64,000 bases of DNA from Mobula hypostoma (Eukaryota). Position numbers and translations under genes: made by a program. The notes below the pieces were generated by a model. That model was given only the letters and a program-made list of their open reading frames with translations, was not told where the DNA came from and searched no databases. The DNA is taken from contig NC_086108.1 in assembly GCF_963921235.1 (NCBI RefSeq), forward strand, positions 41,108,001 to 41,172,000, read 5' to 3'. Positions 39,986-45,206 of this stretch are shown here, piece after piece; position 1 is the first letter of the stretch; each line of letters starts with the position of its first letter.

Positions 39986-40214
39986 TCGCTCACTCCTCGG
40001 CTTTCCTCTGCCTAATCCTCGCTCCCCAGCCTTCCCTGCAACCAAAAATAAACACTCTTCTGATCACGCTACCTCCGTGTCAGTGTCCTGCATTTGAGTT
40101 CACCCGTAATCTCCGTGACAGAACGGTCTGGCCAAATTGGACCCAGTGGACACAAACACTATCCTACAAGCCCTCACCATCCAAAGTTCCCTACTGAAAC
40201 CCTGCCCAGAGAGC

Positions 40215-40316
40215 AACTTGAAGAAAGTGACTCAGAGCTCCCAGGTATCAAATGAGAAAATTGTGCAATTACAAAGACCATTAGAAGAAGCCAATGACTT
40301 GTCACAAACTGAATCC
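40215..40316 (+). pseudogene. ROCK1: Captured Rho-kinase coiled-coil fragment
   Basis: [33 protein letters not shown] versus recalled ROCK1 LKKVSQNSQLANEKLSQLQKQLEEANDLLRTES. Confidence 0.82.
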
Positions 40317-40588
40317 TACTTCAGAGCAAGGATTAAGGGTCTGTCGCCATTTGACAAGGTAGGAGGTGGTATGACACGGTGCATTACAACATGCAACTTT
40401 GATATTGATGTTAATTTGCTTTTTCAAGAAAATTAGTCAGAAAACTGCCTTGACTGAGAAAATTCTCTGTGTTGCCAAACATGAAGTCCCCGCACCATTT
40501 GAAACCACATCGAATTCAGGGTCTGGACTTCATACACATATTCCCTGTTGTACAATGATTGGTAAAATGTGCTATTGAAACCAGAGAA
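40317..40588 (+). pseudogene. CCDC93: Captured CCDC93 N-terminal fragment, intronless
   Basis: [39 protein letters not shown] / QKTALTEKI / [40 protein letters not shown] matches recalled CCDC93. Two small frameshifts and a stop. Confidence 0.92.
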
Positions 40589-40789
40589 TTGACAAACCTT
40601 CTTAAGGATAGTGAAGATTTGATGGACGAAAGTGTTTTGAAATTTTATACCCAGCAATGGGAAGATTACAGGTTTTCTAGTAAAAGTGTTGGATGGAATC
40701 TGTGCCTACCTCAATCAATATTGGGTCCGCCGTGAATATGATGAAAGTACCTAGGATGAGCTGGCTCGTAAATGTAAACAGGTATTTAT
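40589..40789 (+). pseudogene. CUL1: Captured cullin-1 fragment, part 1 with internal in-frame jump
   Basis: [32 protein letters not shown] / [20 protein letters not shown], then ST*DELARKCKQVF. Confidence 0.95.
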
Positions 40790-43350
40790 AGACCACCCAA
40801 TAGTCAGTGAGAATTGGAGGAGCAAATCTGCAGAGAGATAGTAGACAACTGCAGGAAACATGAAGTTGTGATAGTAGGGGATTTTAATTTTCCACATATT
40901 GATTGGGACTCCCATACTGTTAAAGGTCTAGACATGTTAGAGTTTGTACAATGTGTTCAGGAAAGTTTTCTAAATCAATATATAGAGGTACCAACTAGAG
41001 AGGATGCAATATTAGATCTCCCATTAGGAAATAAGTTAGGACAGGTGACAGAAGTTTGTGTAGGGGAACGCTTTGGTTCCAGTGATCATAACACCATTAG
41101 TTTCAACTTGATCATGAATAAAGATAGATCTGGTCCTCGGGTGGAGGTTCTAAACTGGAAAAAGGCCAAATTTGAAGAAATAAGAAAGGATCTAAAAAGC
41201 ATGGATTGGGACAGGTTGTTCTCTGGTAAGGATGTGATTGGTAAGTGGGAGGCCTTCAAAGGAGAAATTTTGAGAGTGCTGAGTTTGTATGTTCCTGTCA
41301 GGATTAAAGGCAAAGTGAGTAAGAATAAGGAACCTTGGTTTACGAGGGATATTGTAACTCTGATAAAGAAGAAGAAGAGAGAGAAGTATAACATGTATAG
41401 GAAACAGGGAGCAAATAAGGTGCTTGAGGAATATAAAAAGTGCAAAGCAATTCTTAAGAAGGAAATCAGGAGGGCTAAAATAAGACATAAGGTTGCTTTG
41501 GCAGTCAAGGTGAAGGATAATCCAATGAGCTTCTACAAGTATATTAAGAGCAAAAGGATAGTAAGGGATAAAATTGGTCCTCTTGAAGATCAGAGAGGTC
41601 AGCAATATATGGAACTAAAAGAAATGGGGGAGATCTTAAATAGGTTTTTTGCATCTGTATTTACTAAGGAAACTGGCACAGAGTCAATAGAAATAAGGCA
41701 AACAAGTAGTGAGGTCATGGAACCTATACAAATTGAAGAGGAGGAGGTGCTTGCTATCTTGAGGCAAATCAGAGTAGATAAATCTCCAGGACCTGACAGG
41801 GTATTCCCTCGGACCTTGAAGGAGAATAGTATTGAAATTGCAGGGGCCCTGGCAGATATATTCAAAATGTCGGTATCCACGGGTGAAGTGCCAGAGGATT
41901 GGAGGATAGCTCATTTTGTTTCTTTGTTTAAAAAAGGCTCAAAAAGTAATCTGGAAAATTATAGGCTGGTAAGATTGACATCGGTAGTAGGTAAATTATT
42001 GGAAGGTGTACTAAGAGATAGGATCTACAAGTATTTGGATAGACAGGGACTTACTAGGGAGAGTCAACATGGCTTTGTGCGTGGTAGGTCATGTTTAACT
42101 AATCTATTAGAGTTTTTTGAGGAGGTTACCGGGAAAGTGAATGAAGGGAAGGCAGTGGATGTTGTCTACATGGACTCCAGTAAGGCCTTTGACAAGGTCC
42201 CGCATGGGAGGTTAGGAAGATTCAGTCACTAGGTATACATGGAGAGGGAGTAAACTGGATTAGACATTGGCTCAATGGGAGAAGCCAGAGAGTGGTAGTG
42301 GAGGATTGCTTCTCTGAGTGGAGGCCTGTGACTAGTGGTGTGCCACAGGGATCAGTGCTGGGTCCATTGTTATTTGTCATCTATATCAATGATCTGGATG
42401 TAATGTGGTATATTGGATCAACAAATTTGCTGATGATACAAGGGTTGGAGGTGTAGTGGACAGTGAGGAAGGTTTTCAAAGCTTGCAGAGGGATTTGGAC
42501 CAGCTGGAAAAATGGGCTGAAAAATGGCAGATGGAGTTTAATACAGACAAGTATAAGGTTTTGCACTTTGGAAGGACAAACCAAGGTACAACATACAAGG
42601 TAAATGGTAGGGCATTGGGAGTGCAGTAGAACAGAGGGATCTGGGAATACAGATACAAAATTCCCTAAAAGTGGCATCACAGGTAGATAGGGTTGTAAAG
42701 AGAGCTTTTGGTACATTGGTCTTTATAAATCAAAGTATTGAGTATAAGAGTTGGAATGTTATGGTGAGGTTGTATAAGGCATTGGTGAGGCCGAATTTGG
42801 AGTATTGTGTGCAGTTTTGTTCACCTAATTACAGGAAGGATATTAATAATGTTGAAAGAGTGCAGAGAAGATTGACAAGGATGTTGCCGGGACTTGAGAA
42901 ACTGAGTTACAGAGAACAGTTGAATAGGTTAGGACTTTATTTCCTGGAGCATAGAAGAATGAGGGGAGATTTGATAGAGGTATATAAAATTATGATGGGT
43001 ATAGATAGAGTGAATGCAAGCAGGCTTTTTCCACTGCGACTAGGGGAGAAAAAAACCAGAGGGCATGGGTTAAGAGTGAAGGAGGAAAAGTTTAAAGGGA
43101 ACATTAGGGTGGGCTTCTTCACACAGACAGTGCTGGGAGAGTGGAATGAGCTGCCAGATAAAGTGGTAAATGCGGGCTCACTTTTAACATTTAAGAAAAA
43201 CCTGGACAGGTACATGGATGAGAGGTGTATGGAGGGATATGGTCCAGGTGCAGGTCAGTGGGACTACACAGAAATATGGTTCGGCACAGCCAAGAAGGGC
43301 CAAAAGGTCTGTTTCTGTGCTGTAATGTTTCTATGGTTTCTAAGGTTTCT
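40787..43350 (+). mobile_element. 5'-truncated CR1 LINE inserted into the CUL1 fragment
   Basis: ORFs 40814-42232 and 42671-43366 with a TTTCTATGG-type tail. CUL1 codons resume at 43351 (QVF|IEKHL). Confidence 0.95.
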
Positions 43351-43833
43351 ATTGAGAAACATCTAGAAATTTTTCATATGGAATTCCAGAATATATTAGA
43401 TGCTGATAGAAATGAGGAATTGGATAAAAGTATAACTTAGTGTCTTAAATCCAAGAAGGCCTTGGGGAGCTGAGGAAAATTCTAGAAAGACATATCCATA
43501 ACCAGGGCTTGGCTGCCATTGAGAAGTGTGGAGAAGCTGCTCTGAATGATCCCAAGATGTATGTACAGACAATTCTGGATGTTCATAAGAAATATAATGC
43601 ATGAGTGATGTCAGCTTTCAACAATGATGCTGGTTTAGTGGCTGCTTTAGATAAGGGTTGTGGCCATTTCCTAAATAATAACACAGTCACAAAAATGGCT
43701 GTCATCAAGTAAACCTCCGGAATTATTTGCACGATACTGTGACTCTCTACCGAAGAAAAGCTCCGAGAATCCTGAAGAAGCTGAGCTTGAAGACACACTT
43801 AATCAAGTGATGATGGTATTTAAGTATATTGAA
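43351..43833 (+). pseudogene. CUL1: Captured cullin-1 fragment, continuation, intronless
   Basis: [22 protein letters not shown]...[47 protein letters not shown]...[39 protein letters not shown]. Confidence 0.96.
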
Positions 43834-45030
43834 GCCATACCAGTTCAAGCACCAGAGGACGAAAGTCGAACACAATCACGAGAAAAGACTACAGAGGTTG
43901 AAGATAAAGCAAGAAACCTGACCAGTGATGTAAGCAGCCAGAACAAACCAACCACTCGTGCAGCTGAGAAAGTAAGCAGTCCTGAGCACTTGTCTGTAAT
44001 TGAGTGTTACATGTCAATTTTTTTAAATTAACCGTAAGCATCATTTAGGTGCACCTGAAAGAGGCGGGTCGATGACGTCATTATAACAAATGCACGGATG
44101 CTTTTTCTATTTGATTCAAGAGGTTTCTGGAAAGATTCGTCAGTTAAACGATTCAACAGACTATGAGCTACCAGCAAGGGAGTGAATTGAGTTGAATGAG
44201 TTGAATGAGTTGAAAAGTTCACTACAGCAGTGGGCAGACCCAATATTTCTCCGTGTCGGAAGATTGTGATAATTTGCGGCACACAGTGCATATTGGGTAA
44301 GTGACTGTCAGTTTGTATGATCCATAGTTGGATTTCTGGAGTATTCTGTGGCGACCACTTTTTGTTAACCTTATCATGGATTCGGGTGTGTTACGTGGCG
44401 ACCACTTGTGTTAAGGTTTATTCCGTGACTGTCAACTTGTGATATCCCTACATGGATTTTGGAACTTAAGCGTCACCTTGTTATCCCTGCATGGACTCTA
44501 GTATTTAAGTGATGACCACTCGCCTTCTGGAATCTTCTGTGACTGTCACCTTGGGTCACCAAATGTGGATTTATGAACCCTACCTCACAGACACCTGTAC
44601 CTGTTCCCGTGGACTTCAGAACCTTCTGGATTGCCATTCTAGGGCTCTGTTTAAATTGTCTATATTTTGGGTTGAGTAAGACTTGGGAAGAATTGTTTCC
44701 AGACCTCCACAGTTTGTGAGCTAAGATGCACTGCACTGTTAATTTTGGTTAGGGGAGTAATTGTTTTAATTGACTATTAAATTGAAAATATAGATGTTTA
44801 ACATAAAAAAATCTGTGTCTGTGGTCTATTGCTGTTGGCACGTAACACTGAGCAAGAAAAACGTTCACTGACTTCAACAAAAGAGAAACCAACAACTGAT
44901 TTAAATTCGGGAAAATTTCCAGCACCAGTATCAGGTACAAGATCAAGAAATCAATCAATCCTGTGATTAAAAAAAAAAGGCGTAAAAGAGAAGCAAGTCC
45001 AGAATGCAAAAGATGATAACATAAAATTCA
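43834..45030 (+). pseudogene. Unidentified S/T/E/K-rich coding-like cargo, split by a solo LTR
   Basis: Open frame [18 protein letters not shown]...EHLSVIE continues as QEKRSLTSTKEKPTTDLNSGKFPAPVSGTRSRNQSIL once 44005-44852 is removed. Confidence 0.55.
44005..44847 (+). mobile_element. Solo LTR of a different family
   Basis: TGTTACATG...CACGTAACA inverted termini with flanks TTGAG/CTGAG (5-bp TSD, one mismatch). Strand inferred from an ATAAA-like signal near the right end. Confidence 0.8.
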
Positions 45031-45206
45031 AGCTACCCAGACCCAGGTGCATTCATCCTACGATCCACGTCTCCCAACTGAAACCTGTGTCTGTCAGCCC
45101 ATTGTGCCTTCCTGCCGAACCCCCCCCCCCACCCGCCTGGGTCGTCGACAATCCGGGCAAGCCCGGTGATTCGCCTGGAGGTTCCCGTTGGGGGGCAGGG
45201 GAATAC

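Follow-up and report, generated by a model that had tools for sequence, protein, structure and literature searches.

Introduction

LARD and TRIM elements are non-autonomous long terminal repeat (LTR) elements that are mobilised in trans by the proteins of a partner. LTR elements can also take up host genes, and the account of LTR-mediated retroposition given by Tan et al. (2016, Genome Res, PMC5131818) describes chimeras formed by template switches guided by microsimilarity, including multi-gene chimeras that transpose again; maize Bs1 is cited there as the classic hybrid open reading frame (ORF). The element described here is of this already known kind. It lies at 39083-45997 on the + strand of the window, that is, the whole stretch of 64,000 nucleotides analysed from the ray Mobula hypostoma (assembly GCF_963921235.1, contig NC_086108.1, positions 41,108,001 to 41,172,000 of the forward strand), and it carries pieces of the host genes ROCK1, CCDC93, CUL1 and BOD1L1 between a gag stub and an integrase stub. 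A first-pass annotation, made from the letters of the window, had proposed that every joint between these pieces lets one reading frame run on from the start of gag into the stub of integrase, and that selection in the mobile ancestor had kept this frame open. The comparison of copies presented below shows that the mobile ancestor of the CUL1-bearing family had no long ORF.

The ray family resembles LARD and TRIM elements in that it retains LTRs, a putative polypurine tract and a leader but lacks a functional gag-pol, and that it would have been amplified in trans; unlike in those elements, the interior is recognisable host coding sequence and not anonymous non-coding DNA. The ray family shares with the chimeras treated by Tan et al. 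the replacement of an internal ORF by spliced host messenger RNA (mRNA) in sense orientation and secondary retroposition, in which the chimera acts as a pseudo-LTR element; microsimilarity at the switch points (median 6 bp in the set reported there) is seen at some of its joints and is nearly lacking at others (PMC5131818 for the published chimeras). It differs from them in combining four host genes with an internal jump, in its at least 25 copies and several structural subfamilies, and in its cartilaginous fish host. Moreover, where that paper deals with reading frames, the longest ORF is scored against the parental frame and not the phase of each joint (PMC5131818). Bs1 is likewise an LTR element with pieces of several unlinked cellular genes, three in its case, but is described in the same source as having 1-5 copies, two of its three pieces in frame and a reported protein (PMC5131818). 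In contrast to Bs1, the hybrid frame of the ray family was already broken in the family ancestor and was without constraint. The family provides a well-resolved vertebrate case of an LTR element that stitched together pieces of BOD1L1, ROCK1, CCDC93 and CUL1 and then multiplied.

Lesions shared among copies of the family

The 3.48-Gb genome was searched with 40 candidates scored per search, and the copy sets given here are lower bounds. At least 24 further places on 13 contigs matched 90% or more of a 640-nt probe (40121-40760) at 79-91% identity, in addition to partial ones. The 28 copies, including that of the window, were sorted into four types. Type A comprises 11 copies built like that of the window, type B 8 copies that are truncated at the 3' end, type C 6-7 copies of an older form that has undergone two additional deletions, and type D 3 CUL1-less copies in which CCDC93 runs on. 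Each natural copy was translated in register with an X at every break, and lesions were tallied per site, no consensus being built.

With the gag start setting the register, 15 of the 563 codons proved to be stops in 11 of 11 type-A copies. The tryptophan codon of CCDC93 at 40556-40558 was found to be a stop (TGA or TAA) in 25 of the 26 copies of types A, B and C, including the window (TGA); L021 has CGA at this site, and among type-D copies L026 has TGG and L027 has TGA. A +1 frameshift in the A-run of CUL1 at 40682-40685, identified against the parental exon, was present in 25 of 26 copies, and L025 has an additional 2-nt gap. At a second CUL1 site (approximately 43423-43430) the length was the same in 25 of 25 copies, and the frame was shifted in every copy translated. 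Six type-A copies carry a 2-nt deletion in CCDC93 (approximately 40465-40471), where the other copies have a deletion of 6 nt or 5 nt or none, and an A-run frameshift insertion near 43690 was found mostly in type A. Type C has two frameshifts of its own together with an out-of-frame CUL1:410>BOD1L1:1712 deletion, the latter in 7/7 copies, and an out-of-frame CUL1:359>integrase deletion was present in 2/2 copies. The gag start was ATG in only 5 of 28 copies; type A has TTG or TTA in its place (10 of 11 copies), and type C has ACG (6 of 6). The type-B copies that keep the ATG terminate after 30 codons, and the longest read from the gag start was 149 codons in any copy, compared with interiors of approximately 550 codons.

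The proposal of a single ORF kept from the gag start to the integrase stub fails for the window's family because the stop and the frameshifts are common to its subfamilies. The CCDC93 stop and the first CUL1 shift (25/26 each), the second CUL1 site (25/25) and an out-of-frame gag deletion described below all interrupt the frame. Several of the breaks that the first-pass annotation had attributed to decay after insertion are common to nearly all copies, and shared stops and frameshifts, which it had itself named as refuting its proposal, were found. In-phase joints alone do not prove that an ORF was kept, and it is the comparison of copies that separates lesions of the master from later decay.

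A selected chimeric protein, one of the products suggested for the ORF, was excluded as well, given that the three codon positions have diverged to the same extent between subfamilies. Divergence between types A and C, after subtraction of decay within types, was 0.057, 0.068 and 0.060 at codon positions 1, 2 and 3, respectively, and divergence within type A was 0.087, 0.091 and 0.071, respectively. Because codon positions diverge alike, the approximately 6% divergence gathered in the active lineages was neutral at all of them. In the CUL1 exon, only 1 of 138 sites carries a non-parental base in at least 80% of the 24 copies compared, and type-A copies are 4.9% from the CUL1 parent, approximately half their mutual distance. 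The CUL1 piece was thus young when the family radiated, and because there are nearly no shared CUL1 changes since the parent, the shared homopolymer frameshifts go back roughly to its capture. The CUL1-bearing element, although probably broken from birth, amplified all the same.

Cargo pieces and the phase of their joints

All cargo pieces lie on the + strand, in sense orientation. The gag N-terminal stub (40137-40214), delimited by alignment with L026, L027 and L029 and with gag of L065/L069, consists of gag codons 1-20 (40137-40196, first codon TTG) and of a second gag scrap (40197-40214) that is the remnant of an out-of-frame internal gag deletion. It is followed by a ROCK1 coiled-coil fragment (40215-40316; PDB matches 8p0s and 3o0z, and alignment), which in the window lacks 8 nt (GATTTGAA) that are kept in types B, C and D, and by a CCDC93 N-terminal fragment of residues ~47-146 (40317-40588; PDB 8f2u and the ray CCDC93 P0131). 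CUL1 fragment a (40589-40745, residues ~79-129) was placed on the parental exons in L062. CUL1 fragment b, placed by comparison with copies, begins with residue 261 at 40746-40792, resumes at 43350 and continues to residue ~437 (43350-43834). The first part of the BOD1L1 C-terminal fragment (43835-44004) is 84% identical to a ray BOD1L1, and in its second part (44848-45018) the last ~17 codons, after an A-run at 44970-44980, are read +1 relative to the parental frame. The integrase C-terminal stub (45011-45125; IKFKLP..IHPTIHVSQLKPVSVSPLC..) is the same as that of L063-L072; in two relatives it matches Pfam SH3_Tf2-1 at 22-25 bits, under the 30-bit cut-off, with only ~25 residues left. The cargo is processed host mRNA, because the CUL1 piece joins two parental exons that are 6.6 kb apart in L062 and because CCDC93 exons that are otherwise scattered across 12 kb adjoin one another in L026 and L027.

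The BOD1L1 fragment had been noted at first only as an unknown piece, and a search of PDB with it gave no match. A reading of this piece as exon-intron-exon with a GTAAGC donor was rejected: its middle is a solo LTR with its own target-site duplication (TSD), missing from other copies. An origin of the A10 run in front of the integrase stub as a remnant of a poly(A) tail was also rejected: the run is an expanded run of lysine codons, with IKKGVKKK in relatives and IKQGRKRE in BOD1L1.

Much of what had been observed locally at the joints was confirmed. The ROCK1>CCDC93, CCDC93>CUL1, CUL1>CUL1 and CUL1>BOD1L1 joints are all in phase with both parental frames. The gag stub, ROCK1 and CCDC93 are indeed read in a single frame, which runs stop to stop over 105 codons (40119-40436) and opens at 40137 with TTG, not ATG. 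The CCDC93>CUL1 joint (40588|40589) proved to be in frame when checked against the parental CUL1 exons and CCDC93 protein, as did the internal CUL1 jump (40745|40746, residues ~129>261), at which ATGAA is common to both sides. The joint from CUL1 into the unknown piece (approximately 43834) is likewise in phase, now with the BOD1L1 C-terminus. Exon skipping was considered as the origin of the CUL1 jump and rejected, the parental exon running on past the breakpoint. In the last joint, from BOD1L1 to integrase, the local continuity stood, but the joint itself is out of the parental BOD1L1 frame and was patched by a 1-nt deletion approximately 50 nt upstream. The parental BOD1L1 frame (..PVIKQGRKREASPERKRRQHKTE..) meets the integrase stub out of phase and still does so in L064, L066, L067, L070 and L072, and the 1-nt A-run deletion yields ..PVIKKGVKEKQVQNAKDDNIKLKLP.. 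in L063, L069, L071, the CUL1-less types and type A.

Alignment with longer relatives showed that the gag>ROCK1 phase in the window copy is the outcome of three successive deletions. In L027 and L029, approximately 92 gag codons are fused in phase to a longer ROCK1 piece, and the window type derives from that form. Deletion 1 lies inside gag, is out of frame and is common to L026 and all CUL1-bearing copies (A, B and C); deletion 2 spans gag into ROCK1; and deletion 3, of 8 nt, is found only in type A and L003 and happens to restore the gag-ROCK1 phase.

Short exact microhomologies were found at many of these points: cargo joints have TTGAAG, ATGAA and AGCAC, and the deletions that measure 294 and 486 nt have GAAGAAAAA and AGTGGAG. 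The microhomology amounts to 5-9 nt at CUL1>BOD1L1, the CUL1 jump, gag>ROCK1 and internal deletions, and to 0-2 nt at CCDC93>CUL1 and CCDC93>RT, where RT is reverse transcriptase. The switch points are common to copies, which indicates a single origin followed by secondary transposition: the junction survey described below lists CCDC93:138>CUL1:79 in 27 rows and the CUL1:129>261 jump in 25, and the copies are spread over 13 contigs.

Relatives of the family and the in-phase excess

A larger sister family (L063-L072) has the BOD1L1 piece and the integrase stub in common with the window's family. Its elements are of the form gag-protease-(RT N-terminus)-BOD1L1-stub and fall into several deletion subtypes. 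Open frames of 576-810 aa are present in some of these elements, that of L069 being 729 aa. One gag-protease-BOD1L1-stub chimera, P0003, has even entered the gene annotation of another ray as an 'uncharacterized protein' of 433 aa.

Two unusual arrangements were seen among single copies. L029 (G000:C9:186321351-186324691) is a mosaic of gag, ROCK1, CCDC93(47-133), RT(81-104), BOD1L1(1256-1306), CCDC93(310-374), BOD1L1(~1678-1806) and the integrase stub, an order of pieces that points to recombination between co-packaged family variants. The CUL1-less L026 (G000:C21:128654301-128657680) has a piece of approximately 150 nt of its own LTR between CCDC93 and BOD1L1.

Junctions were surveyed by ungapped tblastn of gag, protease (PR)-RT, integrase stub, ROCK1, CCDC93, CUL1 and BOD1L1 references against 40 copies, which gave 152 observations and 40 raw junction types. 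For the curated count, reference artefacts and collinear frameshifts were dropped, and joints read by eye and deletion lengths were added. In lineages with a gag ATG (gag-PR-BOD1L1 and the CUL1-less precursor type), 14 of 16 distinct joints or large deletions were in phase, compared to 6 of 12 distinct events in lineages after frame loss, or 20 of 28 overall. Of the original proposal, only a weaker form that concerns these older, ATG-bearing relatives is left standing. The in-phase events of the translated group include deletions of 294, 423, 486 and ~339 nt (the last from coordinates), as well as RT>BOD1L1, gag>ROCK1, ROCK1>CCDC93, two CCDC93>BOD1L1 joints and the L029 mosaic. The contrast between the translated and untranslated groups gave a one-sided Fisher value of approximately 0.04, calculated by hand with a post hoc grouping.

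The fraction in phase expected between coding pieces was 0.405 for exact matches of 5 nt or more (n=4534). Within PR-RT-BOD1L1 it was 0.42 at 5 nt or more and 0.57 at 8 nt or more (n=30), and for imperfect similarity of 13/16 or 15/20 it was 0.71-0.75 (n=55 and 48). The chance level for in-phase joints between coding sequences is thus approximately 0.4-0.57 and not 1/3. The figure of 1 in 81 originally given for four in-phase joints had assumed 1/3 per joint, and 0.405 per joint (exact matches of 5 nt or more) raises it to approximately 1 in 37. With event-wise nulls of 0.28-0.55, approximately 7.3 of the 16 events of the translated group were expected to be in phase by hand calculation, compared to the 14 seen. 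Extended imperfect similarity, with its null of approximately 0.7, was rejected as the driver of phase: the real joints show 0-10 nt of exact microhomology in a background context. Identity around the joints was at background level (25-26 of 81-90 bases; 11-13 of 32).

Proposed history and alternative explanations

The account favoured here, which is probable as a whole, sees the locus as an old copy, now dead, that belongs to a non-autonomous LTR retrotransposon family of Ty3/gypsy type, with an interior made by stepwise template switching, a CUL1-bearing ancestor that was already broken, and a phase that stems from legacy and chance. The anatomy, the identity of the cargo pieces, the private insertions, the lesions common to copies and the neutrality were observed directly; the template switching, the sequence of captures and any filter among the ancestors are inferred from them. 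The interior would have been built stepwise by template switching of RT between co-packaged RNAs at microhomologies of 0-10 nt. In what may have been the first step, BOD1L1 mRNA replaced RT-RNaseH-integrase in a gag-PR element. Pieces of ROCK1 and CCDC93 mRNA would then have replaced most of gag-PR, and a piece of CUL1 mRNA with an internal jump would have replaced the middle of CCDC93. Finally, the CUL1-bearing form would have amplified in trans to at least 25 copies without a long ORF. From its origin, this form would have had the out-of-frame gag deletion (with a stop at codon 30-40), the CCDC93 stop and the two 1-nt homopolymer frameshifts in CUL1; the ATG would later have been lost in two different ways, with neutral evolution at all codon positions.

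The window's family amplified while broken and neutral, and we therefore take its in-phase joints not to reflect maintenance of an ORF in the CUL1-bearing family, but to stem partly from legacy and partly from chance. As legacy they would go back to earlier ancestors that were translated from the gag ATG, among which frame-breaking joints were perhaps filtered out. Chance would be aided by the tendency of microhomologies between coding sequences to lie in phase. The excess in the ATG-bearing relatives fits a filter of this kind, linked to translation and acting in earlier ancestors, and the fit is only suggestive.

Several points weigh against this account. The order of gag deletion 1 and CUL1 capture hangs on one copy (L026), and recombination between co-packaged variants could blur that order. 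The CUL1-less precursor is represented by only 3 copies, and these do not establish an intact precursor ORF. The first CUL1 frameshift was called against parental exon DNA, the second and those after it from protein alignment and from equal length among copies. CCDC93>CUL1 and, in L029, CCDC93>RT are in phase despite 0-2 nt of microhomology (identity 11/32 and 13/32). Moreover, all three CUL1 joints are in phase within a family sharing the out-of-frame gag deletion, and if they are later than gag deletion 1, only chance (approximately 0.4 cubed) would be left to explain them.

A stronger role for translation is rather improbable. According to this alternative, ancestors read from the gag ATG tolerated only joints that kept the frame: a shifted joint would have produced an early stop and a long 3' untranslated region, exposing the genomic RNA to decay of the Upf1 type. 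The window's family would have escaped through a stop within 30-40 codons or through loss of the ATG, after which phase would be irrelevant. The difference between 14/16 in-phase events in the translated context and 6/12 in the untranslated one, and the excess over the approximately 7.3 of 16 expected from the event-wise nulls, argue for it. In Rous sarcoma virus (RSV), premature stops in gag lower the amount of unspliced RNA in an Upf1- and translation-dependent manner, as described by Withers and Beemon (2010, PMC2925335), and such decay is a possible way in which frame breaks could cut the supply of packageable RNA. What that report describes was shown for a retrovirus in chicken cells (PMC2925335), and a strict requirement is at odds with the family of the window itself. 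Both gag deletion 1 and the out-of-frame BOD1L1>integrase joint spread widely, the grouping was post hoc with a Fisher contrast of only approximately 0.04, several events come from single decayed copies, and RT:104>BOD1L1:1256 was scored by local reading against the automatic call. Non-coding LTR elements such as LARD and TRIM, moreover, amplify well in other genomes.

We hold it equally improbable that chance, together with a mechanistic phase bias of template switches at short similarities, accounts for the joints with no selection on translation at any stage. The elevated in-phase fractions (0.405 at 5 nt or more, 0.57 at 8 nt or more in PR-RT-BOD1L1, and 0.71-0.75 for imperfect similarity) and the 20 of 28 events in phase overall are consistent with such a bias. 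However, the joints have 0-10 nt of exact microhomology on background identity, so the null of 0.7 is inapplicable to them, and by hand calculation the translated group, when set against nulls of 0.4-0.55, still shows an excess at p of about 0.001.

Somewhat more tentatively still, phase-keeping may have been conditional. Elements translated from the gag ATG would have spread only those captures and deletions that keep the frame, as their genomic RNA would need a late stop for its stability; a lineage would leave this state by a stop within approximately 40 codons or by loss of the ATG and would then amplify untranslated, the window being a fossil of the switch. If this were true, such families would be natural read-outs of RNA surveillance acting on retroelements. 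The in-frame excess left over in the ATG-bearing older relatives offers a testable lead on whether RNA surveillance shapes the survival of chimeras.

It is very improbable that the ancestor was selected to keep one translatable ORF from gag to integrase and that all lesions are later decay. The four joints that are locally in phase, the gag start and integrase stub lying in the same register in type-A copies and the 8-nt deletion that returns gag to the ROCK1 phase in type A speak for such selection. Against it stand the stop and frameshifts common to subfamilies, the loss of the ATG in 10/11 type-A and 6/6 type-C copies, the lack of any copy reading beyond 149 codons and the spread of out-of-frame deletions (CUL1:410>BOD1L1:1712 in 7/7 type-C copies and CUL1:359>integrase in 2/2). 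We give almost no credence to a functional hybrid protein kept by host or element through Bs1-like exon shuffling, despite the in-phase union of coiled-coil and cullin pieces and the presence of a related element (P0003, 433 aa) among the annotated proteins of another ray, given the equal divergence of codon positions, the stops and frameshifts common to copies and the missing start codon (ATG in 5/28 copies).

Anatomy of the element in the window

The whole LTR element (39083-45997) is one decayed copy; all features given here lie on the + strand, with no strand assigned to the TSD. The TSD, TTATT, was read directly from the sequence at 39078-39082 on the 5' side and 45998-46002 on the 3' side. 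LTR-LTR alignment placed the 5' LTR, with TGTCAC...GTGACA ends and five 67-bp tandem units, at 39083-40120 and the 3' LTR, with the same ends, at 45207-45997. The pair is 89.6% identical over 766 aligned bases, with a Kimura two-parameter distance of 0.115. A purine run at 45190-45203 resembles a polypurine tract, and with its position directly before the 3' LTR it is a candidate for that role. Gypsy-type remnants were recognised in that the gag N-terminus is collinear with gag of relatives bearing a zinc knuckle, a DSG protease and an RT N-terminus.

The interior is approximately 1.7 kb once two nested insertions are removed. A 5'-truncated long interspersed nuclear element (LINE) with endonuclease and RT (40793-43349; Pfam Exo_endo_phos_2 and RVT_1, and flanks) sits in the CUL1 piece; it is 2.56 kb long and has an imperfect TSD of approximately 11 bp, a 3' repeat of the GTTTCTA type and broken frames, and no other family copy carries it. 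The BOD1L1 piece is interrupted by a solo LTR of another family (44005-44847, 843 bp), with TGTTAC...GTAACA ends and the TSD CTGAG; it was delimited by its flanks and by solo copies elsewhere in the genome, of which at least 25 are similar, at 79-89% identity. Both insertions are private to the window copy, being missing from 10/10 other type-A copies, which run directly from 40792 to 43350 and from 44004 to 44847 with a few bases overlapping each time.

A stretch resembling the A and B boxes of transfer RNA (tRNA) genes is present in both LTRs (39925-39985 and 45800-45860), with GGCTCAGTGG ... GGTTCGATCCCCGG; these two stretches gave no ARAGORN match and no Rfam match at E up to 0.1. Elsewhere in the genome, head-to-tail pairs of copies that share an LTR (LTR-interior-LTR-interior-LTR) were seen at L013/L014 (G000:C9:45956338-45962005) and L028/L030 (G000:C2:50544099-50549895). 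The five 67-bp tandem units of the 5' LTR occupy 39460-39861, fewer are present in the 3' LTR (45560-45690), and the number of units explains most of the 247-bp length gap between the two LTRs.

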